Assembly (NCBI GenBank): GCA_963741945.1
Contig: CAVUKA010000001.1
Coordinates: forward strand, 256,001-320,000
Reading direction: 5' to 3'
Source: an uncultured Gemmatimonadales bacterium
GTDB taxonomy: Bacteria; Gemmatimonadota; Gemmatimonadetes; Longimicrobiales; RSA9
Length of the DNA stretch: 64,000 nt
Shown here: in pieces, positions 21,395-43,622 of the stretch
Layout: each line of letters starts with the position of its first letter
Position numbering within the stretch: the stretch's first letter is position 1
Translations under genes and position numbers: made by a program
The notes under the pieces: model-generated
Database searches by the model: none
Told to the model about the DNA's origin: nothing
Seen by the model: the letters and a program-made list of their open reading frames with translations, nothing else

Positions 21395-23353
21395 TCAATT
21401 CGTGAATGTCCATTTGACACCGTATGCGATGTGCTGCCCGGGAGTGAGATACGTGGTTTCCGGAGCGCCGGCCGGCGCGGGGAAATCCCGCTGCCGGGTC
21501 TGGCGTAGCGAGTACAGCACGTCGTCCCAGCGCAGGAATGCCGTCAGCGTCAGCACGCGGACGGACAGCTCGAGATTCGAAGCGCGATACGCCCCCACTT
21601 CCGTGATGCCCGCCGGAGCCGCCACGGTCATGCGCCCGCGGAAGACGTGCTCGGCCCGGGCGTACAGCTCCAGGTGACCGCTCGGCAGCGGAAGCTGGTG
21701 ATACACGAGAGCCGCGCGCCAGTTGTACTCGGGGAGGTAGAGCCAGCCGGGGGGGGCATCCATGCTCACGTACCACCCCTCGAAGTGCAGCGGGTCCCAT
21801 CCGGTGGGGATGCGTGCCGTAGCTTCGATCCCGGTGGCATCGCCCGCCGGGTGCCGCACGAGAAGCGAATCGAACGGGAGACCGAACCCTGCGCTGGAGT
21901 CCGCGCTCAGCCGGACCGCTGCACCGCCCAGGACGAACCCGTGCCCCGCCAGGCGAATTCCCGCGCGGGCGCCCTCGCGCGAAAGGTCGATCGCCGGCAG
22001 CGAGTCGGGCGCCGGCACCACGCGCAGCGACGGCGCGCCAGCCGAGAAGGGTGAGCCGCTCCGGAACACTTCGCCGAATGCCGTCAACCCGAGGGCGGGC
22101 CCGGCTTCAGCGCGCGCGGACCACCGGCCGACGGTCGCACCATCCCACCATTGCTGGGTGGCTTCGGCGCCCGCGGCCAGCAGCGACACCGGCCGCGTCC
22201 AGACCCCGAGCTCCAGCTCCTCCGCGGGCAGGCGGGGGTGCGAGCGCCACCGTGCCGCGGCCGACACGCGCGTCGGGAACGGAGCGGCGAGATCCGCCGC
22301 CAGCCGGAGCCCGGCCTGTGCCGTGGCCTCCCGCAGTGTGAAAGCCTCGCGGTCATCCTCCACGGACGACCCGCCCACGTACGCCTCGGCGGAGGCGGGG
22401 CCGAAGGGTCGGCGGACGCGCACCGCCCAGTCGCGACGGGTGGACTTCTCCGCCGGCCCCACGCCCGACCGGTCCGCCCCCTGCTGCCTGAACTCGATCT
22501 GGATGCCGGTGGAGTCCCGGGCCCAGCTCCACTTGAGCCACGCCGTGGTCAGGTTCGATGGCGCGCCCACTTCGGCCGCGAACCGCTCGAATCCCGCGGC
22601 CACCGGGCCGCCCATGACGTTCGGCGCCAGGAAGACGCCACGGAACAGGTTGATCCCGTAATCACCCGTCGCGGCTTCGATCGTGCTCTCGGGCCCCGGC
22701 AGCGCCGGCGAACGGGTCCGGATGCGCACGGTGGCCCCCGTGAGGCCCCGCTCCACGCGCAGGTGATCGATGCCGAGGAGCGACACGAGGGAGGGATCGA
22801 ACGTGGCGGTCAGGAGCGGATCCAGCGCGTAGCCGTCCACGACGAAGCGAACGGCCCCGAGTGACGCGCCCATCACGCTCACCCCCTCGGGCTCCGCCAG
22901 CGCGATGGGCCGAACGGGCGTCAATCCAGGCACGCGCTCCAGCAGCTGCAGCAGCGTCAGGTTCGGCAGGCGAAGCAGGTCGTCCCGATCCCACTCCCAC
23001 ACGCCCGTGGTCCAACCGGTCGGCGTCGGCGCCGGCAGCCGGACGAGGGCGGGCGGGGGCGGTGTCACCGGCGCCACTGTATCCGCTGGCGCAGGCGTGG
23101 TATCGGGGCGCGTTGGCGCCAGCGTGTCTGGCGCGTTCGGCGCCACCGTGTCCGGCGCGTTTGGCGCCAGCGTGTCCGGCGTCAACGGGCGAGGCAGAGT
23201 GTCCGGACGCTCCGGCTCCTGCGCTCCAGCGGCGCGCGGCGCGGCCAGCGCCAGTGCGACCACGGCAGCGGCGACCAGCGGGAAACGCACGCAAAACGCC
23301 CCCGACCACCACCACCGGGGCCGGGGGCGGGGCGTCGGCCACGGCCGCGTCAC
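21395..23353 (-). CDS. Outer-membrane beta-barrel protein with a plug-like N-terminal domain
   Basis: Signal peptide (..AAGAQ), Pro/Asp/Thr linker, plug-like TLLQLLERVPGL...FVVDG...IDHLRVERG, amphipathic strands, C-terminal YGVKWTFTN; GTG overlaps the pepA stop. Confidence 0.7.
   Translation of the reverse strand: MTRPWPTPRPRPRWWWSGAFCVRFPLVAAAVVALALAAPRAAGAQEPERPDTLPRPLTPDTLAPNAPDTVAPNAPDTLAPTRPDTTPAPADTVAPVTPPPPALVRLPAPTPTGWTTGVWEWDRDDLLRLPNLTLLQLLERVPGLTPVRPIALAEPEGVSVMGASLGAVRFVVDGYALDPLLTATFDPSLVSLLGIDHLRVERGLTGATVRIRTRSPALPGPESTIEAATGDYGINLFRGVFLAPNVMGGPVAAGFERFAAEVGAPSNLTTAWLKWSWARDSTGIQIEFRQQGADRSGVGPAEKSTRRDWAVRVRRPFGPASAEAYVGGSSVEDDREAFTLREATAQAGLRLAADLAAPFPTRVSAAARWRSHPRLPAEELELGVWTRPVSLLAAGAEATQQWWDGATVGRWSARAEAGPALGLTAFGEVFRSGSPFSAGAPSLRVVPAPDSLPAIDLSREGARAGIRLAGHGFVLGGAAVRLSADSSAGFGLPFDSLLVRHPAGDATGIEATARIPTGWDPLHFEGWYVSMDAPPGWLYLPEYNWRAALVYHQLPLPSGHLELYARAEHVFRGRMTVAAPAGITEVGAYRASNLELSVRVLTLTAFLRWDDVLYSLRQTRQRDFPAPAGAPETTYLTPGQHIAYGVKWTFTN
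23107..23180 (-). repeat. About 3 imperfect 24-bp tandem repeats encoding PDT(L/V)APN/T
   Basis: ggcgcgtt(c/t)ggcgcca(g/c)cgtgtc(c/t) units within the CDS. Confidence 0.75.
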
Positions 23354-24876
23354 GCTTCCGTGCGGCCCCTGATCCATTCGATGAACAGCCGGGTAGGCAC
23401 TCCAGTGGGTCCCTTTCGGAGATACGACACGGGCTCGTCCCGATACGCCGTCCCGGCCACGTCCAGGTGCACCCAGGGAACGTCGCCGACGAACTCCTTG
23501 AGGAACCAGCCGGCGGTGATCGTGCCGGCCGGTCGGCCGCCCACGTTCTTCAGATCCGCCACGTCGCTGTCCAGCTGCTTCCGGTACTCATCCCAGAGCG
23601 GAAGCGGCCAGCAGCGTTCTCCCGTGCGCTCCCCCACGGCGCGAACCTCGTCCATCAGGTCGCCATCGTTCCCCATGAGGCCGATCGCCTCGTGGCCGAG
23701 GCCGATGACCACCGCGCCCGTGAGCGTGGCCGCATCGATCATCGCCCGGGGCGCGTACTGCTCCCGCGCGTACGCCAGCGCATCGGCCAGGATCAGGCGG
23801 CCTTCCGCGTCCGTGTTGATCACCTCGACCGTCTTGCCCGAATACATCCGGAGCACGTCGCCCGGTCTGGTCGCCCGTCCGGAAAGGAGGTTCTCCGTGG
23901 CGGGGACCAGCGCGACCACGTTCACCCGGGGACGCAGCCGCGCCATGGCCTGCATGGCCCCCAGGACGGCCGCCGCGCCGGACATGTCGTACTTCATCTC
24001 CTCCATCTTCTGCGCCGGCTTGATGGAGATCCCGCCCGCATCGAACGTGACACCCTTCCCGACCAGGGCCAGTGGCGCTTCGCCCTCTTCGCCTCCCCTG
24101 TACTCCATGACGATGAACCGCGGCTCCTGGTCGCTCCCGGCCGCCACGCCCAGGATCCCGCCGAACCCGCCCTCCTCGAGCGCCGCGCGGTCGAAGACAG
24201 TGATCTTCATCCCGCACTCCTCGGCAACGCCACGGGCCACATCCGCCAGGTGGGATGGCGTCGCGATGTTGCCCGGCTTGGCCGCGAGCTCACGCGCCAG
24301 GTTCTCCGCCTCCGCCACGATCCGGCCGACGTCGGCCCCCGCCCGCATGTCCTCTGCATCCTCCGCTCCGGAGGCGAGGACGGTGACGGACCGGAGCCGG
24401 ACTGTCGGCTCCTCTTCCGCGGCCGTCTTCAGGTCACGGTAATCCCACGCCGCCAGCACGGCCCCTTCCACCGCACCGCGGGCGGCGAAATAGGGCCCCA
24501 TGTGCTCGCTCTTCCGCTCCGTGTGGCCCAGCGCGACGGTGATCTCGTCCACCCGGAGACGCTCCGCCTCCCGGACCGCGGTGCCCACGGCCTGGCGGAG
24601 CCCCTGCATTGCATAGTCTTCCCGCTTTCCGATGCCCACCAGCAGGACACGCTGGGCCGGGAAGCCCGGGTCCTCGGGGTAGACCAGCAACGTCTCGTCC
24701 GTCTTCCCGCGGAAATCCCCGCGCCCCATGAGCCGGTCCAGCAACCCGCCCAGTGCATCGTCCACCGCGGCCATGGCGCCCACGGGGTGCTCATCATCCT
24801 GGAAATGCTGGAGTACCAGGAGCGGCGTCCGTACGGATGCCGCCGGGTCTGTCTGGATCGAGACGTTGACAGGCAT
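23350..24876 (-). CDS. pepA: Leucyl aminopeptidase (M17)
   Basis: VGKGVTFDAGG, MKYDMSG, NTDAEGRL.LAD, ATLTGA, HLDVAG. Confidence 0.97.
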   Translation of the reverse strand: MPVNVSIQTDPAASVRTPLLVLQHFQDDEHPVGAMAAVDDALGGLLDRLMGRGDFRGKTDETLLVYPEDPGFPAQRVLLVGIGKREDYAMQGLRQAVGTAVREAERLRVDEITVALGHTERKSEHMGPYFAARGAVEGAVLAAWDYRDLKTAAEEEPTVRLRSVTVLASGAEDAEDMRAGADVGRIVAEAENLARELAAKPGNIATPSHLADVARGVAEECGMKITVFDRAALEEGGFGGILGVAAGSDQEPRFIVMEYRGGEEGEAPLALVGKGVTFDAGGISIKPAQKMEEMKYDMSGAAAVLGAMQAMARLRPRVNVVALVPATENLLSGRATRPGDVLRMYSGKTVEVINTDAEGRLILADALAYAREQYAPRAMIDAATLTGAVVIGLGHEAIGLMGNDGDLMDEVRAVGERTGERCWPLPLWDEYRKQLDSDVADLKNVGGRPAGTITAGWFLKEFVGDVPWVHLDVAGTAYRDEPVSYLRKGPTGVPTRLFIEWIRGRTEA

Positions 24877-27440: not shown

Positions 27441-27466
27441 GTGACCCGACCTCCTGTTGGATCGTC
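27441..27466 (+). promoter_or_regulatory. Putative ECF promoter (autoregulatory)
   Basis: GTGACCCG-N14-CGTC directly upstream of the ECF gene; the same motif recurs at 29807. Confidence 0.65.
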
Positions 27467-27481
27467 CTGTTCATAGTGCAG

Positions 27482-28042
27482 ATGAAGCCGAGCGAAGGAA
27501 CTGCCGAACCGAGCGACGGCGAAGCCGTGGCCCGCGTGCTCGCGGGAGACCGCGAGTGGTTCCGCATTCTCGTGAATCGGCATCAGGACATGCTGTTCGC
27601 GCACGCGCTGCGAATGACCGGCCAGGGCGATGTGGCGGCCGACATCGTGCAGGCGGCGCTGGTCAAGGCCTTCGAGACGCTGGACCGCTGTCGAGATCCG
27701 GACCGCTTCGGCGCCTGGGCATTCCGGATCGTGGCCAACGGGTCGAAGGACTACCTGAAGAACGTGAGGCGCCGGGATGTCGGCCTGGACACGGTCACGC
27801 CGACGGCATCGGGGAGCGACCCCGGCCGGGACGCGGAGCGGGCCGACCTGCGGCGGCGCCTGGACGCGGCGCTGCACCGGCTGCCGCCGGAGCACCGGGA
27901 AGCGTTCGTGATGAAGCACGAGGAAGGCCGTTCCTACGCGGAAATGGCTGAGCTCCTGGGCGCTTCCGTCGGCGCCCTCAAGATGCGCGTGCACCGGGCG
28001 CGCGAGCTGCTGATGCAGTGGCTGGAGGATGACGCACCATGA
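27482..28042 (+). CDS. ECF-family RNA polymerase sigma factor
   Basis: Region 2 AADIVQAALVKAF..L...F.AWAFRI..N; region 4 LPPEHREAF.....GRSYAEMAELLG.SVGALKMRVHRAR. Confidence 0.95.
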   Translation: MKPSEGTAEPSDGEAVARVLAGDREWFRILVNRHQDMLFAHALRMTGQGDVAADIVQAALVKAFETLDRCRDPDRFGAWAFRIVANGSKDYLKNVRRRDVGLDTVTPTASGSDPGRDAERADLRRRLDAALHRLPPEHREAFVMKHEEGRSYAEMAELLGASVGALKMRVHRARELLMQWLEDDAP

Positions 28043-28692
28043 GAGACGAGCTGCAGCGCTGGCTGGATGGCGACCTCGATGAAGCGGAGCTGCCTGAGGA
28101 GCTCCGGGCCGATGCATCGCGCTGGCAGGAATGGCTGGATGCCCGTGAGCATTCCGCTCCTCACGCCCCCGGTTGGGTGGCCGACGCCGTCATGGCCCGC
28201 ATCGCGCGGATCGACCGCCGCGGACCGCTCGCGCGGCTGGGAGCGTGGCTGCTCCGACCCTGGACCGTGCGCATCCGGCCGCTCACCATCGGCGCCGTCG
28301 CGGCGGCACTGGCCGCCGCCATCCTCTTCTGGCCTGGCGGCGTGTCGGAGGCCGGACCGGGATCGGCCGTCCAGCCGCTGCCCGGTCTGGCAGGCGCGCG
28401 TGACCACGACGGACGCGTTTACGTCCAGTTCGTCTACGCTGCGGGCCGCGCCTCCTCGGTCGCGGTCGCCGGTGACTTCAACGAGTGGTCCGCCGCTGGC
28501 TCGGAGCTGCGCGACCCGGATGGTGATGGCGTCTGGACCGGTTATGTTTCCGTGAGTCCAGGCCTGCACAAGTACATGTTCGTGGTGGACGGGCAGTGGG
28601 TGACAGATCCCCACGCCGACCGCCACGTCGACGATGGCTTTGGCCACGCCAACGCATTGATGACCGTACTGCCACCAGGAAGCTCGATCTGA
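28039..28692 (+). CDS. Putative anti-sigma factor: cytoplasmic helical domain, one TM and a C-terminal glycogen-binding (CBM48/AMPK-beta-like) domain
   Basis: ATGA-coupled to the ECF gene; TM LTIGAVAAALAAAILFW; VAVAGDFNEW...GVW...PGLHKYMFVVDGQWVTDP..DDGFG..N. Confidence 0.82.
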   Translation: MRDELQRWLDGDLDEAELPEELRADASRWQEWLDAREHSAPHAPGWVADAVMARIARIDRRGPLARLGAWLLRPWTVRIRPLTIGAVAAALAAAILFWPGGVSEAGPGSAVQPLPGLAGARDHDGRVYVQFVYAAGRASSVAVAGDFNEWSAAGSELRDPDGDGVWTGYVSVSPGLHKYMFVVDGQWVTDPHADRHVDDGFGHANALMTVLPPGSSI

Positions 28693-29810
28693 TCAAGACG
28701 GCCGCCGCTGTCCTTGCTTTCCTCGCTCTCCCGGCTTCCGGCACCGCCCAGGAGGTGTCGCTCTGGGTCGATGCCACCGGCAGCGACGCCCGCCCCCCGG
28801 CCGGTGCTGTCGGCGAGGTGACCCTGTACGGGATTCTCGGCGCCCGACTGGAAGCGTACGGCGACCCCTTCTCCGCCAATGCCGCCGCCCGGTACGGGGA
28901 AGCGGTCTCGGGCACGGCAGCCCGCTGGGTCCAGGGCGAGGCCTCCCTCACAACGGGTCGCCGCTTCGGCCGTATGGGTGTGCGGATCGGCGCCAACGCC
29001 TTCGGCCTCCGCTACATCGACCCGTTCACATACTCCGGCGGCGGCGGCGGCGCACAGGCGGATGTCAACCTGGCCCTGGGACGCACCATCGTCGCGTTCA
29101 CTCCGTCCTGGAGCGCGGGCGCGTGGAGCTCCGACGCGCTGTCGGGCGATCTCCGGGTGGCGGGAGCGAGCGTGGAGCTCGCACGTCCTTCCGGACCGCT
29201 GCTTCTGCGTGCAGGCGCTGCGGCGCGGGATGTCCTCAACGGCGCCGTAGACGGCGCGTTCCTCACGGCCACGGCCGCCCTCGACTACACCGCTCCACGC
29301 TGGACCGCGTCGGCGCACGTGGCAGCCCAGCACAATCCGCTGGAGGATGTTCTGGCAGGCGGTGTGACCCTCGGCATCCCCCTGGGCGAGGGTGCGCAGC
29401 TCCGGGTCGATGTCGGACGCACGCTCCGCGATCCACTGTTCGGAACGCCCGGGAGTTTCGCGCTCAGTATCGGGCTTAGCGTGCGGGCACTGAAGACGGG
29501 ATCCATCGTCCCGCCGGTGGTCGCGGTGGGACATCCCGAGACCGGAGGGCGCCGGGTGCGATTCTCGCTCGCTCCGACCAACGCCAGCACGGACGCCCGC
29601 ACCGTCGCGCTCACCGGCGATTTCACGGACTGGCTCCCCCGCCCCATGGAGCGGGAAGGCGGTCGCTGGATCCTTGATGTCGTGCTGGCGCCGGGGCTCC
29701 ACCATTTCGGGTTCCTGGTCGATGGGCAGTGGTACGTGCCGGACACAGCGCCGGGGCTGGTGGAGGACGGGTGGGGCCGTGAAAACGCGAGCATCATCGT
29801 CGAGCCGTGA
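28689..29810 (+). CDS. Secreted, probably outer-membrane beta-barrel protein with a C-terminal CBM48-like domain; start uncertain (CTG 28689?)
   Basis: Signal peptide KTAAAVLAFLALPASGTAQ, Gly/Ala-rich alternating strands, VALTGDFTDW...GRW...PGLHHFGFLVDGQW..EDGWG.EN. Confidence 0.75.
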   Translation: MIKTAAAVLAFLALPASGTAQEVSLWVDATGSDARPPAGAVGEVTLYGILGARLEAYGDPFSANAAARYGEAVSGTAARWVQGEASLTTGRRFGRMGVRIGANAFGLRYIDPFTYSGGGGGAQADVNLALGRTIVAFTPSWSAGAWSSDALSGDLRVAGASVELARPSGPLLLRAGAAARDVLNGAVDGAFLTATAALDYTAPRWTASAHVAAQHNPLEDVLAGGVTLGIPLGEGAQLRVDVGRTLRDPLFGTPGSFALSIGLSVRALKTGSIVPPVVAVGHPETGGRRVRFSLAPTNASTDARTVALTGDFTDWLPRPMEREGGRWILDVVLAPGLHHFGFLVDGQWYVPDTAPGLVEDGWGRENASIIVEP

Positions 29811-29832
29811 CCCGCAGGGGGCGATGAGCGTC
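29807..29832 (+). promoter_or_regulatory. Putative ECF promoter, second copy
   Basis: GTGACCCG-N14-CGTC, same spacing as at 27441. Confidence 0.65.
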
Positions 29833-29868
29833 TATGATGTGGACAGAGACCTGCGAGGATGCACGATC

Positions 29869-30669
29869 ATGAACAAGCGACGACCGATCACACTGCTGGG
29901 CGCGGCCACGGCCCTCCTCCTCTTCGCCACCGCCGTCTCGGCGCAGCAGGAGCGGGTGGAGGAGATGGCGCGTATCCGGGCCGGGCTTCCGCCGGACGTG
30001 GTGCAGCAGATCGAGCAGGTCATGGCTCGTGCCCGGGGGGAAGGGCTGCCCACGGAGCCACTGCTGGACAAGGCCGTGGAGGGGGTGGCCAAGGGCGTTG
30101 CGGGCCCCATGATCGTGGGCGCCGTCGAACGGCTCTCCGCCCAGCTCGGTGAAGCCCGACAGCTGCTGGGCGCCGGCCCCATGGCACGCACCCGCGCGGG
30201 CTCCCCCATGGAAGTGGCCGCCGTGGCCGACGGGCTGCGTCGGGGCGTCCCGCCGCAGGCCATCCGACACATGGCCGTGAACGCTCGGAACGGCGAGCCG
30301 CTCGCCATGGCCGTGCACACGCTCGGCGACCTCCTGGACGAGGGCGTACCGGTGGACGAGGCCGTGGCCGTTCTCGACGCCTGGCGGGGCCGAGGCGCCC
30401 GCGCCCAGGAGCTGCGCGACATCCCGGCGGCCGTGCAACGGATGATCCGCCGCGGATCACTGCCCGGCCAGGCCGCCGCGGCGGTGGCCGGAGCGATGCA
30501 CGGAGGAGCCGCCCCCGGCACCATGGGGAACGGGCCTATGGGAGCGGGCCATGGACCGCCCGGCGGCCCCCCGGTGCCGCCCGGCTCCGGTCCGCCCACC
30601 GATCGGGGGCACGGCCCCGGGCAGCATGGCGGCCCGCCCGGAGGCGGCTCACCCCCGGGCGGGGTTTGA
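29869..30669 (+). CDS. Secreted alpha-helical hypothetical protein with a Gly/Pro-rich tail
   Basis: Signal MNKRRPITLLGAATALLLFATAVSA-Q; recurring GLP/GVP helical units; SD GAGG. Confidence 0.75.
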   Translation: MNKRRPITLLGAATALLLFATAVSAQQERVEEMARIRAGLPPDVVQQIEQVMARARGEGLPTEPLLDKAVEGVAKGVAGPMIVGAVERLSAQLGEARQLLGAGPMARTRAGSPMEVAAVADGLRRGVPPQAIRHMAVNARNGEPLAMAVHTLGDLLDEGVPVDEAVAVLDAWRGRGARAQELRDIPAAVQRMIRRGSLPGQAAAAVAGAMHGGAAPGTMGNGPMGAGHGPPGGPPVPPGSGPPTDRGHGPGQHGGPPGGGSPPGGV

Positions 30670-34043: not shown

Positions 34044-35042
34044 CTAATCCTTCCCGTTGCCGGCGCCGGGCGCGCTCTGGGAATCCTTGGCAATGGAGTT
34101 CCGCATGTCGGTGTCGGCGTTGAGGTTCCGATAGCGGACGTAATCCATGATCCCGAGATTGCCCGACCGGAACGCTTCCGCCATGGCCAGCGGGACCTCG
34201 GCCTCCGCCGCGACCACGCGGGCACGCATCTCCTCGACCGTGGCGCGGTTCTCCTGCTCGGCGGCCACGGCCATGGCGCGTCGCTCCTCCGCCTTGGCCT
34301 GCGCGATCCGCTTGTCGGCTTCCGCCTGGTCCGTCTGGAGCTCGGCGCCAATGTTCTTGCCGACATCCACGTCGGCGATGTCGATGGAGAGGATCTCGTA
34401 CGCGGTGCCGGAGTCGAGTCCCTTGCCCAGCACCGTCTTCGATATGGCGTCCGGGTTCTCGAGCACGGCCTTGTGGGACACGCTGGACCCGATGGTGGAG
34501 ACGATCCCCTCACCGACCCGGGCAAGGATCGTGTCCTCCCCCGCCCCGCCGACCAGGCGGTTGATGTTGGCACGGACGGTCACGCGGGCAATGGCAATGA
34601 GCTGAATCCCATCCTTGGCCATGGCCGCGACTTTCGGCGTGTTGATCACCTTCGGGTTGACCGACACTTTCACGGCTTCCAGCACATCCCGCCCGGCGAG
34701 GTCGATGGCGGCCGCCTGCTGGAACGGGAGCTCGATGTTGGCCTTGTCGGCACTGATCAGCGCCTTCACCACCCTGTCCACGTGCCCCCCTGCCAGGTAA
34801 TGCGCCTCGAGCTGTTTGGTGGTGAGCGAGAGACCCGCCTTCGTCGCCGCGATCAGTGGCCGGACCACGCCGGCCGGGTTCACTTTCCGCAGCCGCATGC
34901 CGATCAGGTCGCCGAGCCCGACGGTCACGCCGGCGAAGACGGCCTCGATCCAGAGTCGAACGGGAACGGCCCAGAAGAGGAGGATCACCACAAGGGCGAC
35001 CCCGACCAGCAGCAGGGGCGTCAACAGTGCTACGCCTTCCAT
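34044..35042 (-). CDS. floA: Flotillin-like protein FloA (YqfA/UPF0365)
   Basis: [57 protein letters not shown]. Confidence 0.95.
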
Positions 35043-35087
35043 ATCGGACTCTCCATCGAACGGGTCAGTGCCAGGAAAACAGTCGGC

Positions 35088-36566
35088 TCAAGAGGTCCCG
35101 CCGGTCCCCGGATCGGTCATGGCACGGACGACGTGCCGGTATCCTTCGGAACGCACCACCTCGATCGGTGTCCCTGCGGCCAGCCACCCTTCCTCGGCCA
35201 CGATGTCCAGGCGCTCGTCGCCGAACAGGCCCACGCCAGCGGGCCGCAGGTCGGTGGCCGCGGTGCCCTGGCGGCCCACGAGGTCGGCGCGCATGGCGGC
35301 GGACGTGTAGCCCGTCTCCCGGGTCGTGGACTCGCCCAGCATGATGCCGGAGCGGAGCAGCCGTCGGTTCCTGGGCAGGGTGCGCAGGAGCGCCCAGGCG
35401 CTGACCAGCACGATCAGAACGGAAAGGGAAAGGATCATGGCTGCATGACTGTAGTCCACAGCCGTCGAGAGGTTCCCGACCAGGCTCAGGTAGATGCTGC
35501 CGAGCACCCCGAGGATGCCCAGGATTCCGAACACGCCGAAGCCAGGAATCAGGAAGACCTCGATTCCGAGGAGCGCCACGCCAGCGGCGAGGAGAATGAT
35601 CTCCTCCATGCCCGCGAGCCCCACGAGGTAGTGGCCGCCGAAGAAGAGCGCGAGCGCGATTCCGCCGGCGGCGCCCGCCAGCCCGAACGTCGGTGTCTTG
35701 ATCTCGATCAGGAGGCCGAGGAACCCGAGGGAGAGCAGCAGTGGGGCCACCATCGGGTGGGTGATGAACCGGACCAGCCCTTCGGCCCAGTTGACCTGCA
35801 TGTCCACCACGCGGGCATCCGGCAGGCCGATGCGAGAGAGCACGTCCTGGAGATCGGTCACCGGCTGGGCGAACCCGACCTTCTCGGCTTCGTTCGTGGT
35901 CAGCGTCAGCAACTGCCCGCTCTCGACCACGCCATCCACCGCCACGTTCTCGTCCACCATGGCCTCGGCCACCCGCGGATCGAGCCCGCGCCGCTCCGCC
36001 AGCGCCCGCATCTCGCTGCGCATGGCGCTCACGATCTTCTCCGGCGCCTTCTCGCCCTGCCCGTTCACAGGTGTGGCAGCGCCGAGGACGGAGCCGTCGC
36101 GCATGAAGATGCCGTCCGTCGCCAGCGCGATCATCGCCCCAGCCGAGAGGGCCCACGGATTGACATAGGCGTACACCGGGACTTCCGCGTCCTGAATGGC
36201 GGTCACGATCTTCTGCGCCGCATCGACGCGACCGCCCGGCGTGTCCAGCTCCAGGATCACGGCATCCGCGCCCGCGGCCGCAGCCTCATCGAGGCTCCGC
36301 TCGACGAACGGGGCGAGGCCCAGCTCGATGGTGTTCTTCACCGGCACGCGGTACACCACGGCTTCGGTGGGAAGCTCGGTCGGGGCCTTCGCGCATCCGA
36401 TCGCCGCGATCGCTCCGGCCAGAAGCGACAGAACGGAAGCCCGGCCCAGCCAGGTGGGCCGCCGGCTGGCGGGAGACCCCGGAGGCGCGGGGCACACTTC
36501 ACCGGAGCGACGCCGCGCGGGAGTCGCCGACGCAGCGGGCAGCGCTGCAGACTTCTGTATGCTCAT
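35088..36566 (-). CDS. NfeD-family membrane-bound serine protease (long form)
   Basis: LDTPGG, ALSAGA, GAATP, EKI..MR, TM block, C-terminal OB-fold TDLRPAG; ATGA-coupled to the upstream gene. Confidence 0.92.
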   Translation of the reverse strand: MSIQKSAALPAASATPARRRSGEVCPAPPGSPASRRPTWLGRASVLSLLAGAIAAIGCAKAPTELPTEAVVYRVPVKNTIELGLAPFVERSLDEAAAAGADAVILELDTPGGRVDAAQKIVTAIQDAEVPVYAYVNPWALSAGAMIALATDGIFMRDGSVLGAATPVNGQGEKAPEKIVSAMRSEMRALAERRGLDPRVAEAMVDENVAVDGVVESGQLLTLTTNEAEKVGFAQPVTDLQDVLSRIGLPDARVVDMQVNWAEGLVRFITHPMVAPLLLSLGFLGLLIEIKTPTFGLAGAAGGIALALFFGGHYLVGLAGMEEIILLAAGVALLGIEVFLIPGFGVFGILGILGVLGSIYLSLVGNLSTAVDYSHAAMILSLSVLIVLVSAWALLRTLPRNRRLLRSGIMLGESTTRETGYTSAAMRADLVGRQGTAATDLRPAGVGLFGDERLDIVAEEGWLAAGTPIEVVRSEGYRHVVRAMTDPGTGGTS

Positions 36567-37303
36567 GTCGATTCCGCCAGCTCGATGGCGTAATAGGCCC
36601 GCTGAATGGCCAGCAGGTAGTCTCCGGCCTCTACGGCTCTGGCGGACCAATCCTTCAGACGACGAGCGCGCTCCAGCGCGGCCTCGCCCCCGCCGGACTG
36701 CGGCCGCTTCGCTTCCGCGGCCTCCACGGCCGCCGCAGCCTCGCCCGACAGGCGGCGAGCCAGATACCGCGGCGTGGTCTCTACGAGCTCGGAGGTGGCG
36801 AGCAGAAGGTAGTACGCCCGGCCGCGCGCATCGCCGCTCGCGTCCGACCGCTCCAGGAGCGAGCGCGCGGCGTCGAGTCGCTCATCGATCGCCGGGATCT
36901 CGACGTGCCGGAGCATGGCATCCGCAGTGACCATCCATGCATCCATCCGCTCGCGCGCGGCGCTCCACTGTGTGCTGTCGAGCGAAGCACCGAGGATCGG
37001 GGCGGCGTAGCTGGCGGCCAGGCGGCGGCGGGCGCGACCACGCCCGTCCATGGCGGCCGTTCCGGCGTCCCACAGCTCCCGGGCGCGGAAGAGGGATGCC
37101 TGGTCGGCACCCTCCACCTGGATTTCGGCGGCGAGATCGGGGAGGAACGGCAGTGACGCGGCCGAGCGCATCACGGCCTCCGCCTCGGCCGAATCCACGA
37201 GGGCGTCGGGATCGGTGATCTCGTCGCCGCACCCGGCCAGAAAGGCCGTGGACAGGGCGAGCGAGAACATCGCGGGCAGCCACAAGGGACGTCGCAAGGC
37301 CAA
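36563..37303 (-). CDS. Putative alpha-helical lipoprotein
   Basis: Lipobox FLAG-C after a hydrophobic stretch; TTG start. Confidence 0.7.
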   Translation of the reverse strand: MALRRPLWLPAMFSLALSTAFLAGCGDEITDPDALVDSAEAEAVMRSAASLPFLPDLAAEIQVEGADQASLFRARELWDAGTAAMDGRGRARRRLAASYAAPILGASLDSTQWSAARERMDAWMVTADAMLRHVEIPAIDERLDAARSLLERSDASGDARGRAYYLLLATSELVETTPRYLARRLSGEAAAAVEAAEAKRPQSGGGEAALERARRLKDWSARAVEAGDYLLAIQRAYYAIELAEST

Positions 37304-37400: not shown

Positions 37401-37495
37401 GCGGCCGGTTCCGGCGACGGACGCGCCTCTCGGTTTTGCCCCGGGGGCGCGTCCGCGTTTCCACGCGAGACACCTACCCAATCCGGAGGAACGGC

Positions 37496-38332
37496 ATGGC
37501 CGAGGATCCCCACAGGGAGGACCAGGAGGGCAGCAAGAAGAAGACGCTCGTGCACTTCAGCGTAAAGAACGGCGTCGCGCTGATGACCCTCGATGACCCG
37601 CCCGCGAATACGTACACCTACGCTCTGATGCGGCAGCTGGACGACGGCATCCTGCGCGCCCGCATGCGTGACGACGTCCACGTGGTGGTCATCACCGGGC
37701 AGGGCGAGAAGTTCTTTTCCGCCGGTGCCAACATCCAGATGCTGGACGAGGTGACAGCCGGGTTCAAGTACTGCTTCTGTCTGCACGCGAACGAGACGCT
37801 GCAGCGGCTGGAGCAGACGCCCAAGCTGGTGATCGCCGCGCTGAACGGGCACACCGTGGGTGGCGGTCTCGAGATCGCCATGGCTGCGGACATCCGGGTC
37901 GCGCGCAAGGATGGCGGCAAGATCGGCCTGCCGGAAGTCACGCTGGGTGTGCTTGCCGGTACGGGCGGCACGCAGCGCCTGGCGCGGATCGTGGGCAAGT
38001 CCAAAGCCATCGAGATGATGGTCACCGGCACCACGTTCGATTTCGACACGGCCAAGGAGTACGGCCTGGTGAACGATGTCTGGGAGGCGGAGAGCCACGA
38101 GGCGTTCATGGACCGGGTCATGGAGTACGCCGAGTCGTTCGCGCCGCCGAACCGGGCCGGGAAGGCGGTTGGCATGATCAAGCGGGCCGTGCAGACGGGA
38201 TGGGAGCTTCCCCTGGCGGAGGCGCTGGCCGTGGAGCGGGAACTCCAGCAGCAGCTTTTCCAGAGCCAGGATGCCCGGGAGGGGATCGCCAGCTACCTGG
38301 AGAAGCGGAAGCCGCAGTTCAAGGGCAAGTAG
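37496..38332 (+). CDS. Enoyl-CoA hydratase/isomerase family (crotonase fold, both catalytic Glu)
   Basis: FSAGAN, NGHTVGGGLEIAMAADIR, GLPEV.LG...GGTQRL; SD GGAGGA. Confidence 0.93.
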   Translation: MAEDPHREDQEGSKKKTLVHFSVKNGVALMTLDDPPANTYTYALMRQLDDGILRARMRDDVHVVVITGQGEKFFSAGANIQMLDEVTAGFKYCFCLHANETLQRLEQTPKLVIAALNGHTVGGGLEIAMAADIRVARKDGGKIGLPEVTLGVLAGTGGTQRLARIVGKSKAIEMMVTGTTFDFDTAKEYGLVNDVWEAESHEAFMDRVMEYAESFAPPNRAGKAVGMIKRAVQTGWELPLAEALAVERELQQQLFQSQDAREGIASYLEKRKPQFKGK

Positions 38333-38440
38333 CGCCGGATTCCCGCCAGGACTGCCGCCGGGCGCCCGCCGTCGGGCCCCGGGGGCGGTCCGCGGCGCCC
38401 TTCCCTGCCCGAACTCTATCACCCTGATCCCGAGGACTCC

Positions 38441-39910
38441 ATGGCCATTGACCCACCGACCGACCGCCTGGCCCCCGACCGACTCTTCATCGCTGGCGAG
38501 TGGCGCGACGCCGCGGACGGCAGTGTCTTCACCACCTGGAACCCGGGTACGGGCAGCGTCCTGGCCGAAGTGGCGGAAGCCGGAGCCGCGGATGTTGATG
38601 CGGCCGTGCGCGCGGCCCGCGATGCGGCGGCGCCTGATGCCGAATGGCGGCGCATGGACGCGCTGGACCGGGGGCAGGTGGTGGGGCGGATCGGGCGCGC
38701 GATCCGCGAGCGCGCCGAAGCGCTCACGCAGCTCGAGACGCTGGACAACGGAAAGCCGCTGCGGGAGGCCCGGATCGACATCGAGCAGGCCGCGGACGCG
38801 TTCGAATACTACGCGGGGTGGGCCTCGAAGCTGGAGGGCGAGACCGTTCCGGTCCGGGGTCGCGTCCTGAACTACACGGTGCGCGAGCCGGTCGGCGTGG
38901 TCGGCGCCATCATTCCGTGGAACTTCCCGCTGCTGATGGCCGCCTGGAAGGTGGCGCCGGCCCTGGCCTGCGGCAACGCGGTGGTCCTGAAGCCCGCGGA
39001 GCAGACGCCCCTGGCCGCGCTGGAGCTGGCGGCCATCGCGGCGGAGGCCGGGCTGCCGGGTGGTGTCCTGAACGTGGTCCCGGGATACGGCCAGACTGCC
39101 GGTGCGGCACTCGTGCGTCACCCGGACGTGGACAAGATCAGCTTCACCGGCTCCACCGAGGTTGGGAAGCAGATCATGCGGGAGGCGGCGGACTCGCTGA
39201 AGAAGGTTTCCCTGGAGCTGGGGGGCAAGTCGCCGAACATCGTGTTCGACGACGCGGACCTCGACGCCGCCGTCCGGGGCGCCTTCAACGGCATTTTCTA
39301 CAACGCGGGGCAGTGCTGCACCGCGGGCTCACGCCTGCTGGTGCAGTCCTCGATCCACGACGCGTTCATGGAGCGGCTGGTGGAGCGCGTGGACCGGCTG
39401 CAGCCGGGCGAGCCGCTGGATCCGAAGCGCCGCTACGGGCCCGTGATCTCCGAAGAGCAGCTGGCCCGGGTGCTGGGCTACATCGAGAAGGGGCGTTCCG
39501 AGGGGGCGAAACTGCTGACGGGCGGCAACCGCGCGGGGCCAGCCGGGAGCGGGTACTGGGTGGAGCCCACGATCTTCGACGCGGTGGACCCGGAGACCAC
39601 CATCGCCCGGGAGGAGATCTTCGGTCCCGTCCTCGCCACTCTGACGTTCGACGACGAGGCGGAGGCGGTCGAGCTGGCGAACCGCACGATCTACGGCCTG
39701 GCCGCGGCGCTCTGGACTTCCGACGTCAAGCGGGCACACCGCGTGGCCGCGCGGCTCCAGGCCGGCACGGTCTGGGTGAACACGTACCACCCCCTGGACG
39801 CCGCCTCGCCCTTCGGCGGCTACAAACAGTCCGGGTACGGTCGTGAGCTCGGCAAGCACGCGCTGGAACTCTACACCCAGGTCAAGTCCATCTGGGTGGA
39901 TCTGCACTGA
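38441..39910 (+). CDS. NAD-dependent aldehyde dehydrogenase
   Basis: PWNFP, KPAEQTP, FTGSTEVG, LELGGKSP, GQCCTAGSR, EEIFGPV, PFGGYKQSG. Confidence 0.96.
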   Translation: MAIDPPTDRLAPDRLFIAGEWRDAADGSVFTTWNPGTGSVLAEVAEAGAADVDAAVRAARDAAAPDAEWRRMDALDRGQVVGRIGRAIRERAEALTQLETLDNGKPLREARIDIEQAADAFEYYAGWASKLEGETVPVRGRVLNYTVREPVGVVGAIIPWNFPLLMAAWKVAPALACGNAVVLKPAEQTPLAALELAAIAAEAGLPGGVLNVVPGYGQTAGAALVRHPDVDKISFTGSTEVGKQIMREAADSLKKVSLELGGKSPNIVFDDADLDAAVRGAFNGIFYNAGQCCTAGSRLLVQSSIHDAFMERLVERVDRLQPGEPLDPKRRYGPVISEEQLARVLGYIEKGRSEGAKLLTGGNRAGPAGSGYWVEPTIFDAVDPETTIAREEIFGPVLATLTFDDEAEAVELANRTIYGLAAALWTSDVKRAHRVAARLQAGTVWVNTYHPLDAASPFGGYKQSGYGRELGKHALELYTQVKSIWVDLH

Positions 39911-39947
39911 GGCCGATGGCCGACTACGTTCGGAAAGGGAGGCTGTC

Positions 39948-41150
39948 ATGCCCGAGCCGGTGATCGTGTCGGCCGTGCGGACGCCGGTGGGGCGCGCAGG
40001 CGGCGCTCTGGCTTCCGTGCGCCCCGACGACCTCGCGTCGGTCGTGCTGCGCAGGGTGGTGGATGACGCGGGACTCGAGCCGTCTCTCGTGGAGGACGTG
40101 ATCCTGGGCTGCGCGAACCAGGCGGGGGAGGACAACCGCAACGTCGCCCGCATGGCGGCGCTTCTCGCCGACTACCCGGTGGAAGTGGCCGGGCAGACGG
40201 TCAACCGCCTGTGCGGGTCGGGACTCCAGGCGGTCAACAGCGCTGCCCACGCTGTGGCCGCCGGTGAGGGCGACATCTTCGTGGCGGGGGGCGTGGAGTC
40301 CATGAGCCGGGCGCCCTGGGTGCTGCTGAAGCCGGATCAGGGCTACGCCCGCGGTGCGCCCGCGATGGCGGACACCATTCTCGGGTGGCGGTTCGTCAAT
40401 CCTCGCTTCCCGGACCACTGGACGGTGCAGCTCGGCGCCACGGCGGAGAACGTGGCGGAAGCGCGGGCTGTCGGGCGTGAAGCCCAGGACCGGTTCGCGC
40501 TCGAGAGCCAGCGCAGGGCGGCGGCAGCAATGGCTGCCGGGCGTTTTGACCCCGAGATCGTGTCCGTGGAGGTGGCGCGGCGGAAAGCGCCTCCGGTGCA
40601 GGTGACCACGGATGAGCATCCGCGCCCGGACACGACGCTGGACAGACTGGCGAGCCTCCGCCCGGTCTTCCGCGAAGGAGGTACCGTGACGGCTGGCAAT
40701 GCCTCCGGCCTCAACGACGGGGCGGCCGCGCTGCTGGTCACGTCATCGGAGCGCGCCGCCTCGCTCGGGCTGCGTCCCATTGCGCGCTACATCACCAGCG
40801 CCGTGGTCGGGGTGGAGCCCGACTACATGGGCCTGGGACCGGTCCCGGCCGCGCGGAAAGCGCTGCAGCGCGCCGGGCTGCGCGTGGAAGACCTCGATCT
40901 CGTGGAGCTGAACGAGGCGTTCGCGTCACAGAGCATCGCGTGCATGGATGAGCTCGGGCTCGACCCCGAGATCGTGAACGTGAACGGCGGAGCCATTGCC
41001 CTCGGGCACCCGCTCGGCTGTTCCGGAGCCCGCATACTCACCACTTTGATCCATGAGCTGCGGCGGAGGGGGGGCGGTATCGGGATGGCCACCATGTGCA
41101 TCGGCGTGGGCCAGGGCATAGCCACGATCGTGGAAGTAGAAGGGGCATGA
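39948..41150 (+). CDS. Thiolase, PaaJ/PcaF-like (3-oxoadipyl-CoA thiolase)
   Basis: GCANQAGEDNRNVARM, NRLCGSG, DT.LGWRFVNP, NEAFA, GHPLG, CIGVGQG. Confidence 0.9.
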   Translation: MPEPVIVSAVRTPVGRAGGALASVRPDDLASVVLRRVVDDAGLEPSLVEDVILGCANQAGEDNRNVARMAALLADYPVEVAGQTVNRLCGSGLQAVNSAAHAVAAGEGDIFVAGGVESMSRAPWVLLKPDQGYARGAPAMADTILGWRFVNPRFPDHWTVQLGATAENVAEARAVGREAQDRFALESQRRAAAAMAAGRFDPEIVSVEVARRKAPPVQVTTDEHPRPDTTLDRLASLRPVFREGGTVTAGNASGLNDGAAALLVTSSERAASLGLRPIARYITSAVVGVEPDYMGLGPVPAARKALQRAGLRVEDLDLVELNEAFASQSIACMDELGLDPEIVNVNGGAIALGHPLGCSGARILTTLIHELRRRGGGIGMATMCIGVGQGIATIVEVEGA

Positions 41151-41938
41151 ACGAGAAGAAGCAGATCCTCGTGGAGCGGTCGGGCAACCTCGGCTGGATC
41201 CGAATCAACCGTCCGGAGCGCCTGAACGCGCTGGTCGGCGACATGCGCGAGCTGCTCGACCGTGGGCTCCAGGAGCTCGACGAGGATCCGGCCGTCCGCT
41301 GCGTGGCCATCATCGGTGTGGGGCGGGCCTTCTGCACCGGGGGCGACGTTCAGCACATGGCGGAGCTCGCCGAACGCGACGACGGCGAGGCGTTCGAGGA
41401 GCTCGTCCGCGCGGGCATCCGGATCGTCAAGCGGATCGACGAGATGCGGAAGCCCGTCATTGCCGCCGTGAACGGCGCGGCCGCCGGCGCCGGCGCATCG
41501 CTGGCGCTGGCCTGCGACATGAGGATCGCCAGCCAGGCCGCGTCCATCGGGCTCACCTTCACGCGCATCGGGCTCCATCCCGACTGGGGCGGCGCGTACT
41601 ACCTCCCCCGACTCATCGGGTCGGCGCTCGCGGCCGAGCTGACGTTCACCGGCGGCATGATCAGCGCCCGCCGCGCGGAGCGGCTCGGGCTCTTCAACCG
41701 CGTGGTCCCGGCGGACGAGCTGGAGGGCGCCGTCCGCGGCCTCGCGGGCCAGATCGCCGGTGGGCCCGCGCACGTGATCGCGGACGCCAAGCGCACGCTC
41801 CGGCGCAGCCTGGCAGCCGAGCTCGACGAGATCCTCGAAATGGAAGCGGCCGCCCAGCTGCGGGCGTTCCAGTCGACGGAGTTCCAGGAGGGCGTACAGG
41901 CGTTCCTGGAGAAGCGCGCACCGCAGTTCGGGCGATGA
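41147..41938 (+). CDS. Enoyl-CoA isomerase, PaaG-like
   Basis: NGAAAGAGASLALACD and GLHPDWGG (Asp present, no catalytic Glu pair). Confidence 0.8.
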   Translation: MNEKKQILVERSGNLGWIRINRPERLNALVGDMRELLDRGLQELDEDPAVRCVAIIGVGRAFCTGGDVQHMAELAERDDGEAFEELVRAGIRIVKRIDEMRKPVIAAVNGAAAGAGASLALACDMRIASQAASIGLTFTRIGLHPDWGGAYYLPRLIGSALAAELTFTGGMISARRAERLGLFNRVVPADELEGAVRGLAGQIAGGPAHVIADAKRTLRRSLAAELDEILEMEAAAQLRAFQSTEFQEGVQAFLEKRAPQFGR

Positions 41939-42843
41939 GCGAGGGCGCGGTGGCGGCGGCAGGCCAGCCGGGGGAGGCGCGGCGAGTCGTCGTGGTGGGG
42001 GCGGGTACCATGGGGCATGGGATCGCCCAGGTAGCCGCCATGGCCGGGGCGCAGGTCACACTGGTGGATCGGAGCGCCGACCTGGCCGAGGAAGGGCTCC
42101 GGCGCCTCCGTGCGAACCTCGACGCTGGTGTCGAGAGGGGCAAGGTGGAGCCCGAGCTGCGGGATCGGACCGCGGGTCGGGTCACGGGCGGGACGGACCT
42201 GGAAGCGGCCTCGGCGGACGCCGACCTCGTCGTGGAAGCGGTTCCCGAACGGCTGGAGCTGAAGCGGGAGGTCTTCGCCCGGGCGGAGCAGGCCGCGCCG
42301 GCAGGCGTGCTCCTGGCGAGCAACACGAGCAGCCTGAGCATTACCACCATGCAGCGAGGGCTGGCACACCCGGATCGCCTGATCGGGCTCCATTTCTTCA
42401 ATCCCGTCCACATCATGAAGCTCGTGGAGGTGGTCCGGGGGGAGGCATCGTCCGCGGAAGCGGTCGGGGCGGGCGCCGCGTTCGCGCGCTGGATCGGGAA
42501 GGAGCCGATCGTCGTCCGGGACTCGCCCGGGTTCGCGTCGTCCCGGCTCGGCGTCACCCTCGGGCTGGAAGCCATGCGGATGCTGGAAGAGGGCGTGGCC
42601 AGCGCGGAGGACATCGACACGGCCATGACTCTCGGCTACCGCCATCCCATGGGGCCGCTCCGCCTCACCGACCTGGTGGGGCTCGACGTGCGCCTCCACG
42701 TGGCCGAGTACCTCCACGAGTCGCTCGGGGCCGAGCGCTTCCGACCCCCGGAGATCCTGCGTCGGAAAGTGGCCGCGGGGGAGCTGGGCCAGAAGAGCGG
42801 ACGCGGTTTCTACCACTGGCCCGCCACAGGGGAGGGGGGATGA
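41935..42843 (+). CDS. 3-hydroxyacyl-CoA dehydrogenase (PaaH/Hbd-like)
   Basis: GAGTMGHGIAQ, EAVPE, ASNTSS, GLHFFNP, PMGPL...D.VGLD, G.KSGRGFY. Confidence 0.94.
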   Translation: MSEGAVAAAGQPGEARRVVVVGAGTMGHGIAQVAAMAGAQVTLVDRSADLAEEGLRRLRANLDAGVERGKVEPELRDRTAGRVTGGTDLEAASADADLVVEAVPERLELKREVFARAEQAAPAGVLLASNTSSLSITTMQRGLAHPDRLIGLHFFNPVHIMKLVEVVRGEASSAEAVGAGAAFARWIGKEPIVVRDSPGFASSRLGVTLGLEAMRMLEEGVASAEDIDTAMTLGYRHPMGPLRLTDLVGLDVRLHVAEYLHESLGAERFRPPEILRRKVAAGELGQKSGRGFYHWPATGEGG

Positions 42844-43622
42844 CGGAGCTCGAAACCGTGCGCGTCGCCGCGGACGAGGGCGTGGCGACGGTCACCGTGG
42901 ACCGGCCGGAGCGGCGGAATGCGCTGAACGCCGTGGTGCGCCGCGAGCTCACGCGCGTGGTGGAGAGGCTGGCGGGCGAGGACCACGTGCGCGTGGTGGT
43001 GTTCACGGGCGCCGGCGAGAAGGCCTTCATCGCAGGCGCCGACATCGGTGAGTTCGCCGAGCGCACGCCCCTCCAGCAGCGGGCGGCGATGGAAGGGCTG
43101 CGAGTCTACGACGCCATCGCCGCGTTCCCGAAGCCGACGATCGCGTCGATCAACGGCTACGCCCTGGGCGGCGGGTGCGAGCTGGCCCTGGCATGCGACC
43201 TGCGCATCGCCGCCCGCTCCGCCCGGCTCGGTCAGCCCGAAGTCAATCTCGCCCTGCTCCCGGGCGGCGGCGGGACGCAGCGGTTGCCGCGGCTCGTGGG
43301 CCTCGGCCGCGCCATGCGGCTGATCCTCACCGGCGAGATCATCACTGCGGAGGAAGCCGAGCGGATCGGGCTCGTGGACGAGCTGGTGGACGACGACGCG
43401 CTCGCCGCCCGCACCCGCGAGCTGGCCGCCTCCATCGCCGGCCATTCCCCGGTGGCGCTCAAGCTCATCAAGGAAGCGGTGCGCGCGTCCGCGGAGCTGC
43501 CGCTGAGCGCGGGACTGGCCCTCGAGCGAGAGCTCTTCCTCTCGGCGTTCGCAAGCGAGGATCGTGTGGAAGGAGTGGCCGCGTTCCTGGAGAAGCGGGC
43601 AGCCGTGTTCAAGGGGAGGTGA
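42840..43622 (+). CDS. Enoyl-CoA hydratase (PaaF/Crt-like)
   Basis: AGADI, NGYALGGGCELALACD, GQPEV, PGGGGTQRLPRLVG. Confidence 0.93.
   Translation: MTELETVRVAADEGVATVTVDRPERRNALNAVVRRELTRVVERLAGEDHVRVVVFTGAGEKAFIAGADIGEFAERTPLQQRAAMEGLRVYDAIAAFPKPTIASINGYALGGGCELALACDLRIAARSARLGQPEVNLALLPGGGGTQRLPRLVGLGRAMRLILTGEIITAEEAERIGLVDELVDDDALAARTRELAASIAGHSPVALKLIKEAVRASAELPLSAGLALERELFLSAFASEDRVEGVAAFLEKRAAVFKGR

Follow-up and report, generated by a model that had tools for sequence, protein, structure and literature searches.

A putative autoregulated ECF sigma/anti-sigma module with periplasmic CBM48 domains in Gemmatimonadota

Described systems closest to the locus

Extracytoplasmic function (ECF) sigma factors form the third pillar of bacterial signalling, and to our knowledge most ECF groups have no known input. 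Here, we describe four closely spaced genes (g1 to g4, all on the + strand, positions 27441-30669) in a 64,000-nucleotide stretch of an uncultured Gemmatimonadales bacterium of soil or marine type (contig CAVUKA010000001.1, positions 256,001 to 320,000; below, the window is this whole stretch). They belong to a genome of 4.09 Mb with 70% G+C and encode, in this order, an ECF sigma factor, a putative single-pass anti-sigma factor, a predicted outer-membrane barrel and a secreted helical-repeat protein, the second and third of which end in a carbohydrate-binding module (CBM) of the CBM48/AMPK-beta type. We propose, with somewhat more confidence than doubt, that the locus is an autoregulated ECF sigma/anti-sigma envelope-signalling module with a feedback centred on g4, and that this module is typical of Gemmatimonadota.

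Two well-known systems share part of this layout. In the FecI-FecR-FecA system, an outer-membrane barrel, an inner-membrane anti-sigma factor and an ECF sigma factor are encoded together, and the FecA-type transducer is a 22-stranded, TonB-dependent barrel. Genes for a barrel, an anti-sigma factor and an ECF sigma factor also stand together here, but the modelled g3 barrel has 14 strands, lacks a plug, a TonB box and an N-terminal signalling domain (no Pfam matches to Plug, TonB_dep_Rec or STN) and carries its extra domain at the C-terminus, while g2 has no FecR domain in Pfam and the barrel is optional. The locus falls outside cell-surface signalling of the FecA/FecR type. The RpoE-RseA-RseB system of E. 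coli is an autoregulated operon in which the operon's own periplasmic protein binds the periplasmic domain of a single-pass anti-sigma factor, and CpxP, a helical periplasmic protein induced by stress, inhibits the pathway to which it belongs. In Pfam, g4 has no match to the RseB or the CpxP family, nor to any other family at E≤0.1, and no natural fold match to g4 was found. RseA carries no CBM on its periplasmic side, whereas g2 does, and there is no DegS-like gene in the g1-g4 operon.

CBMs on anti-sigma factors have been described as well. The SigI/RsgI pairs of Clostridium thermocellum, which sense polysaccharides, comprise membrane anti-sigma factors with CBMs and work by regulated intramembrane proteolysis (PMC10328401). 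By the logic of a membrane anti-sigma factor with an extracytoplasmic C-terminal CBM, RsgI/SigI is the closest characterised analogue of our locus. The differences are that the sigma factor is of the SigI type instead of ECF, that RsgI combines a conserved autoproteolytic periplasmic domain with CBM3, CBM42 or PA14 where g2 has CBM48, that the monoderm host offers neither an outer-membrane partner nor a g4-like protein, and that the regulon consists of glycoside hydrolases, as opposed to the envelope proteins predicted here (PMC10328401). The anti-sigma type seen here has itself been catalogued as ECF278s1, a subgroup in which glycogen sensing by a periplasmic AMPK glycogen-recognition site on a one-transmembrane-segment anti-sigma factor was suggested from bioinformatics only (Casas-Pastor et al. 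2021, PMC7826278). Like here, an ECF sigma factor is accompanied at position +1 by this anti-sigma factor, and the -35 element is GTGAC in both, yet the -10 element reads GTATA there and CGTCT, AGTCT or AGTGT here; the likeness is thus one of anti-sigma layout and -35 element. ECF278s1 was drawn from Desulfovibrio and Syntrophobacter, as compared to Gemmatimonadota for the present module, and its entry mentions no conserved neighbours, i.e., no barrel-CBM, no g4 and no DUF4382 gene (PMC7826278). In full-text literature searches, an anti-sigma factor with an AMPK CBM appeared only in the supplement of PMC7826278, the remaining groups of which may bear on this claim. The initial annotation of the window knew of no characterised system with this layout; this calls for the qualification that the anti-sigma type had already been catalogued, though not characterised. 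What is new here is the complex model, in which g4 is positioned against the presumed sugar face of the anti-sigma CBM with its conserved Trp-Trp pair.

Sigma/anti-sigma core and its predicted partner g4

The first gene, g1 (27476..28042, 188 aa), encodes a small protein with sigma regions 2 and 4 alone (Sigma70_r2, 6.3e-15; Sigma70_r4_2, 4.8e-16; no other domain types in Pfam) that scores 92.9 bits against the NCBIfam model sigma70-ECF TIGR02937 (cut-off 42.9), as is characteristic of ECF (group 4) sigma factors. It is one of many ECF sigma factors in this genome, since about 21 other Sigma70_r4_2 matches are present. Two further ECF hallmarks, a co-transcribed cognate anti-sigma factor and a self-recognised promoter, are apparent from the arrangement of genes and promoter words. 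The start of g2 (28039..28692, 217 aa) overlaps the g1 stop in the tetranucleotide ATGA. This protein has a single hydrophobic segment at residues 79-97 (nt 28273-28329), with three K+R in the 15 residues on its N-terminal side and none in the 15 residues on its C-terminal side, and ends in a domain that exceeds the Pfam cut-offs for both AMPK1_CBM (residues 136-211; 3.8e-11, 43.5 bits versus 26.8) and CBM_48 (3.6e-6, 27.7 bits versus 22.4). Because the only helix runs N-in/C-out and the sigma-binding end is necessarily cytoplasmic, the CBM48/AMPK-beta domain (residues ~125-212, nt 28411-28674) is most probably periplasmic. The coupling of an ECF sigma factor to a single-pass protein with a terminal CBM48-type domain was correctly recognized in the initial annotation, and the non-cytoplasmic location that it proposed for this domain is supported by the predicted topology. 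The N-terminal anti-sigma-like region of g2 spans residues 1 to ~65 and contains an LDGDL motif. The g2 family has at least 483 members. A conserved LDGEL motif is present and a Cys motif is absent; class I anti-sigma domains (ASDI/ZAS) are helical N-terminal domains in which the HxxxCxxC zinc motif is optional.

The fourth gene, g4 (29869..30669, 266 aa), starts at 29869 with a signal-peptide-like segment (residues 1-25), followed in the AlphaFold2 model (predicted local distance difference test, pLDDT, 85) by eleven helices that end at residue 211 (nt 29944-30501), while residues 212-266 make up a disordered tail rich in Pro and Gly. A secreted helical fourth protein had been anticipated in the initial annotation and is borne out. 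Foldseek returned no match for g4 at E≤1e-3, and the best hit of a wide VIA search, to designed helical repeats (Z 9.3), stays below the helical-background level. The family is nonetheless large, with 3330 representative clusters at E≤1e-3 and 488 at E≤1e-30, and its most conserved stretch comprises residues 67-89, in which K75 is invariant and G72 near-invariant. Tails in the g4 family are generally rich in Pro, Gly and Arg (window 30502-30666 in g4), with a P-x-P-P-G motif in 40 of the 150 best representatives.

Modelling of the g2 periplasmic domain (residues 118-217) together with the helical domain of g4 (residues 26-215, tail excluded) yielded a median ipSAE of 0.75 (runs of 0.78, 0.74 and 0.75), while the best of three controls scored 0.00. 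Among solved complexes, 116 of 157 attained this mark, as did two of 215 mismatched pairs, with author-built alignments that make these counts only rough. The runs share at least 84% of their contacts, with a pLDDT of at least 84 for the partner. To the predicted interface, g2 contributes W150, W187 and its DDGF loop (D198-F201), and g4 contributes residues 67-89, including the invariant K75. The predicted g4 site would coincide with the presumed Trp-Trp sugar face of the CBM. No solved complex resembles this one, and the score is unlikely to stem from structures memorised by the predictor because g4 has no solved look-alike. The model favours binding between g2 and g4, without demonstrating it.

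The conservation of the locus was followed in two sets. In the first, which consists of the loci of 20 relatives, the sigma factor and two CBM proteins are found in all 20, as is g4. In the second, composed of the best 80 of 329 confirmed g2 relatives (all from Gemmatimonadota metagenome-assembled genomes), the sigma gene adjoins the anti-sigma gene in 80/80 loci. Downstream gene content was judged on the 68 loci with at least 3 kb of downstream sequence, 12 being too short: 46 contain both barrel-CBM and g4, and the other 22, e.g., the Palauibacter loci, contain g4 without a second CBM. The expectation that all four genes are conserved together is therefore borne out by the first set and by these 46 loci, with the core being sigma factor, anti-sigma-CBM and g4 and the barrel a frequent accessory. 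In a survey of 301 Gemmatimonadota genomes (tallies include the four unpublished genomes G097, G157, G057 and G182), the g3/CBM query was found in 191 and the g4 profile in 188, with near-identical per-family tallies; the module is present in about two thirds of the sampled genomes of the phylum.

Three gene orders occur. The window has order A (sigma, anti-sigma-CBM, barrel-CBM, g4). In order B (sigma, anti-sigma-CBM, g4a, barrel-CBM, g4b), each CBM gene is followed by its own g4 copy, and a quick tree that carries no support values places the two copies apart in distinct groups. Order C runs anti-sigma-CBM, barrel-CBM, sigma, g4; its first CBM protein retains the N-terminal motif and the transmembrane segment and sits in the anti-sigma CBM clade. 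The barrel domains have strongly diverged among orders A-C: the barrel hidden Markov model (HMM) of g3 reached only the five closest loci, and profile-profile comparison was needed for the other barrel types. With hhalign, the window barrel aligns with that of order C at 94.5% probability (E 7.7e-8, 218 columns), and weakly with that of order B (51%, E 1.5e-4). The presence of a g4 paralogue after each CBM gene fits CBM-g4 pairs. This bears on the idea that the barrel docks directly on the anti-sigma factor, CBM to CBM and without glycan or g4, to report on the outer membrane in a FecA-FecR-like manner. Two co-inherited CBM lineages in the same compartment, with 39% identity between the g2 and g3 domains (E 4e-15), speak for such docking. 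However, 22 of 68 loci do without the barrel, while g4 is present wherever the sequence reaches far enough, and the two-g4 operons are better explained by CBM-g4 pairs, so that we consider direct docking highly improbable.

Barrel protein and the sugar face of the CBMs

The third gene, g3 (28689..29810 when read from a CTG start), encodes a protein with a hydrophobic leader that is kept in relatives and ends here in GTAQE, and with a second CBM48-type domain at its C-terminus (AMPK1_CBM, 8.5e-10, 39.1 bits versus a cut-off of 26.8). Past the GTG at 28596, the stretch up to the signal peptide (within 28596-28760) has no ATG, GTG or TTG. Candidate starts are the CTG at 28689, which overlaps the g2 stop (cTGA) and has AGGAAG ahead at 28677-28682, and the GTG at 28596, 97 nt inside g2. 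In the protein collection g3 is 351 aa long, as the gene caller's start falls after the signal peptide. An AlphaFold2 model built from an alignment of 38 relatives (pLDDT 87.6, predicted template-modelling score 0.69) comprises 14 long antiparallel strands at residues 20-270 (nt 28746-29498), followed by a beta-sandwich CBM48 at residues 278-371 (nt 29520-29801). By its closed antiparallel arrangement, even strand count and signal peptide, the modelled g3 has the properties of an outer-membrane beta-barrel, and the Foldseek search is in line with this, with OmpG at the top (2x9k, E 4.9e-9; 4ctd_B, TMt 0.76), followed by FadL and general porins. The initial annotation, which had foreseen a signal-peptide-bearing, beta-rich protein with a second CBM and had made the barrel fold of gene 3 a test in advance, is supported on both points. 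The even strand count implies that both termini, and hence the g3 CBM, are located in the periplasm. The g3 family counts 49 proteins including that of the window, and its source-named members are from Gemmatimonadota/Longimicrobiales. With g3 alone as query, a search for related loci yielded none that could be confirmed. Within the barrel domain, conservation is highest in RDPLFGTPGS (window 29421-29459, model residues 245-256), the 12-residue loop between strands 13 and 14, which would be extracellular by strand count.

The resemblance to OmpG raises the possibility of a substrate-induced sugar channel, in which g3 would act as an OmpG-like oligosaccharide porin, its CBM would capture chains and the anti-sigma CBM would detect them and induce the operon. 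Indeed, the best fold matches of g3 belong to this 14-stranded monomeric porin, g3 is expected to be transcribed from the autoregulated promoter P1 ahead of g1, and the nearest named neighbours of g3 in the Protein Atlas are OmpG, Porin_4 and OMP_b-brl clusters (0.84-0.85; leads only). Yet AMPK1_CBM is the sole Pfam match of g3 at E≤0.1 and no Pfam porin family, Porin_OmpG included, matches it, which is why we file g3 as OmpG-like in fold only. In addition, the predicted regulon contains no uptake or hydrolase genes, and the dedicated second promoter serves g4 and not the barrel. We regard a sugar channel as a clearly unlikely account of the locus.

The two CBMs, which are the only PF16561 matches in the genome, were compared with AMPK-beta1, in which W100, K126, W133 and N150 are critical for carbohydrate contact (PMC4032982). 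Residue equivalences were taken from the HMMER alignment to AMPK-beta CBM structures, except for N366, which derives from the family alignment. W100 corresponds to W150 in g2 and W315 in g3, W133 to W187 and W348, and N150 to N205 and N366, whereas the position of K126 is taken by M180 and G341. These positions were also compared among 101 anti-sigma CBMs and 71 barrel CBMs. The first Trp is kept in 101/101 and 71/71, respectively, the second in 97/101 and 70/71, and the Asn in 91/101 and 41/71; the Lys is never kept, its place being held by M in 85/101 anti-sigma CBMs and by G in 53/71 barrel CBMs. A DPDGDG loop at g2 residues 159-164 (window 28513-28530) follows the calcium-site-like pattern DxDxDG, which is near-invariant in anti-sigma CBMs (D in 87, 76 and 78 of 101) and absent from barrel CBMs. 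When 82 CBMs were placed in a tree, anti-sigma and barrel CBMs were parted by a branch supported at 100/98 (39+2 versus 39+2), the four exceptions being two loci whose gene-order-based labels were probably swapped. This separation into two clades indicates old, co-inherited paralogues and not recent copies.

These domains led the initial annotation to an alpha-glucan relay that links the barrel to the anti-sigma factor. Spelled out, a periplasmic alpha-glucan (a glycogen- or maltodextrin-like chain) would be bound by both CBM48s and bridge the barrel to the anti-sigma factor, or would be sensed by the anti-sigma factor alone, with glucan binding or loss triggering the release of the sigma factor. 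We find this improbable in the light of the evidence as a whole. In its favour, the g2 and g3 domains both pass the Pfam threshold for AMPK1_CBM, the residues corresponding to W100, W133 and N150 are kept, genes of GH13/CBM48 glycogen type are found elsewhere in the genome, and glycogen sensing was also the guess of the ECF278s1 authors in their subgroup entry (PMC7826278). On the other hand, the equivalent of K126 is never kept, g4 is the predicted occupant of the CBM face, genes of glucan metabolism or sugar transport do not follow the promoter word in any of four genomes, and no glucan-related gene is found among the genes flanking the operon. Moreover, the relay cannot depend strictly on a barrel that 22 of 68 loci lack. 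On balance, a g4-centred feedback or a partner switch is at least as likely as the relay, and a glycan could compete with g4 for the CBM face.

Promoter word, predicted regulon and proposed mechanism

An ECF-type promoter word occurs twice at the locus, on the + strand. The first copy, P1 (27441..27467), consists of GTGACC (-35), N16 and CGTCC (-10), the latter ending 9 nt before the GTG start of g1 (window 27463-27482). The second, P4 (29807..29833; GTGACC, N16, CGTCT), turned up in an unbiased whole-genome scan; it overlaps the stop of g3, with 35 nt left to the ATG of g4. In the first locus set, GTGAC[CG]-N16-nGT[CG]T precedes the first operon gene in 10/20 loci and stands directly ahead of the last g4 gene in 10/20. 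The -10 words vary (CGTCC/CGTCT in the window, AGTCT/AGTGT in relatives); those of P1 and P4 are nonetheless identical in loci L027, L035, L037 and L038 and one base apart in L032 and in the window. Across 100 loci the word has 101 matches, compared with 26.7 ± 5.2 in dinucleotide shuffles. In the second set, 52 of 71 word matches are located at P1 or P4, with six in the reversed-sequence control. A scan for sigma-70-type promoters returned 0 sites, and terminator-like sites are at chance level (one found, 0.9 expected). The start codon lies 7-8 nt past the -10 element in L036, L037 and L039. The short spacing between -10 element and start codon suggests that the mRNA of g1, and sigma mRNAs of this type, are leaderless or near-leaderless.

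The word is also found ahead of other genes. It precedes genes of DUF4382 lipoproteins, often with CarboxypepD_reg, beside the operon in L031, L038 and L033 (two genes), as well as a TIG/Kelch protein gene in L035, and DUF4382-like open reading frames (ORFs) occur inside 16/100 loci. The genome of the window itself has 62 word matches, nine of them non-coding, and one of these is situated ahead of a DUF4382 gene on another contig (G000:C4:58618-59538, 5.5e-20). Sigma70_r4_2 also has a weak match (E 5.7e-4) on the same strand about 1 kb from that gene, in the region G000:C4:58618-60790. In three whole genomes, the exact word GTGACC-N16-AGTGT has 12 copies, compared with 0 in the reversed control: nine belong to the sigma locus, one stands ahead of a third DUF4382 gene (4.1e-24) and two stand ahead of small ORFs without a family. 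Taken by its promoter words, the predicted regulon appears to be small and to consist of envelope proteins. Profile comparison of DUF4382 with the PDB gave no match below E 0.1, and a literature search on DUF4382 gave no relevant work. One further candidate (G000:C1:633158-634306) was dropped as it has neither a Pfam family nor a signal peptide.

Around the computed domains, folds, conservation and promoter word, and the predicted g2-g4 contact, we infer a mechanism that extends to the sequestration of the sigma factor, its proteolytic release, the role of the barrel and the nature of the signal. In the resting state, the N-terminal domain of g2 would keep the g1 sigma factor at the inner membrane, while the aromatic face of its periplasmic CBM (W150, W187, F201) most likely docks g4. 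An envelope signal would free the sigma factor, presumably via proteolysis of g2, and the freed sigma factor would read GTGACC-N16-CGTCT at P1 for the whole operon, at P4 for g4 and at unlinked DUF4382 lipoprotein genes. Made from a dedicated promoter by the same sigma factor, g4 would close a loop that serves as feedback or guard, similar to RseB and CpxP. Such a role is suggested by the combination of the predicted interface, the own promoter of g4 and its presence wherever the core is present. The CBM of g3, with the same face, would hang into the periplasm and provide an accessory input, perhaps in competition for g4 or for a glycan. This last point can be developed into a periplasmic partner switch, which we hold to be possible though not probable: the CBM48s would dock g4, the g3 CBM or a glycan on the Trp-Trp face would compete for it, and the outer membrane, or an envelope polymer, would by its state set the amount of unguarded, degraded anti-sigma factor, after which the sigma factor would make more g4 from P4 and reset the system.

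Several findings weigh against the g4-centred feedback that we favour. No Pfam anti-sigma family matches the g2 N-terminus at E≤0.1, and the g2 family profile matches the RsiW structure 5wuq_C weakly (E 0.066, positions 5-63); binding of g2 to g1 is inferred from this match together with the 80/80 adjacency and the ATGA overlap. The g2-g4 contact is a model score obtained from unpaired, uncalibrated alignments. The strict promoter pattern was recovered at P1 in only 35/78 loci of the second set and at P4 in only 17/73, which indicates that many loci use promoter variants not captured by it. Finally, of the four residues by which AMPK-beta contacts glycogen, the g2 and g3 CBMs each keep three, and all profile relatives of the CBM in the PDB are alpha-glucan proteins (pullulanase, 1.4e-11; AMPK-beta; GlgB; SIP2; SEX4). 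Kept contact residues and such relatives make glycan binding fully possible, and it would account equally well for the conserved CBM face.

The genes around the operon are housekeeping genes: citrate synthase, isocitrate dehydrogenase, an SLT transglycosylase and an ORF of MurB size (size only). Elsewhere in the window, a flotillin-like FloA gene (1.3e-158) adjoins a gene for an NfeD-family membrane protease (34044-36650), and pairing of FloA with this family is known. A 660-aa ORF at 21395-23377 shows a coding-like GC3 and has no Pfam family at E≤1e-5, and a run of beta-oxidation type extends over 37436-43622 with three enoyl-CoA hydratases, an aldehyde dehydrogenase, a thiolase and a 3-hydroxyacyl-CoA dehydrogenase.

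In summary, the module is compact and phylum-wide, with a clear promoter word and a tiny predicted envelope regulon. If the g4-centred reading is true, a "glycogen-binding" domain docks a protein partner on its sugar face, and caution would be needed when CBM48 matches in regulators are read as sugar sensors. The g4 proteins would then represent a new periplasmic guard/feedback family of more than 3000 sequence clusters that has no Pfam model, and the module offers a way into the envelope stress biology of a little-studied phylum.

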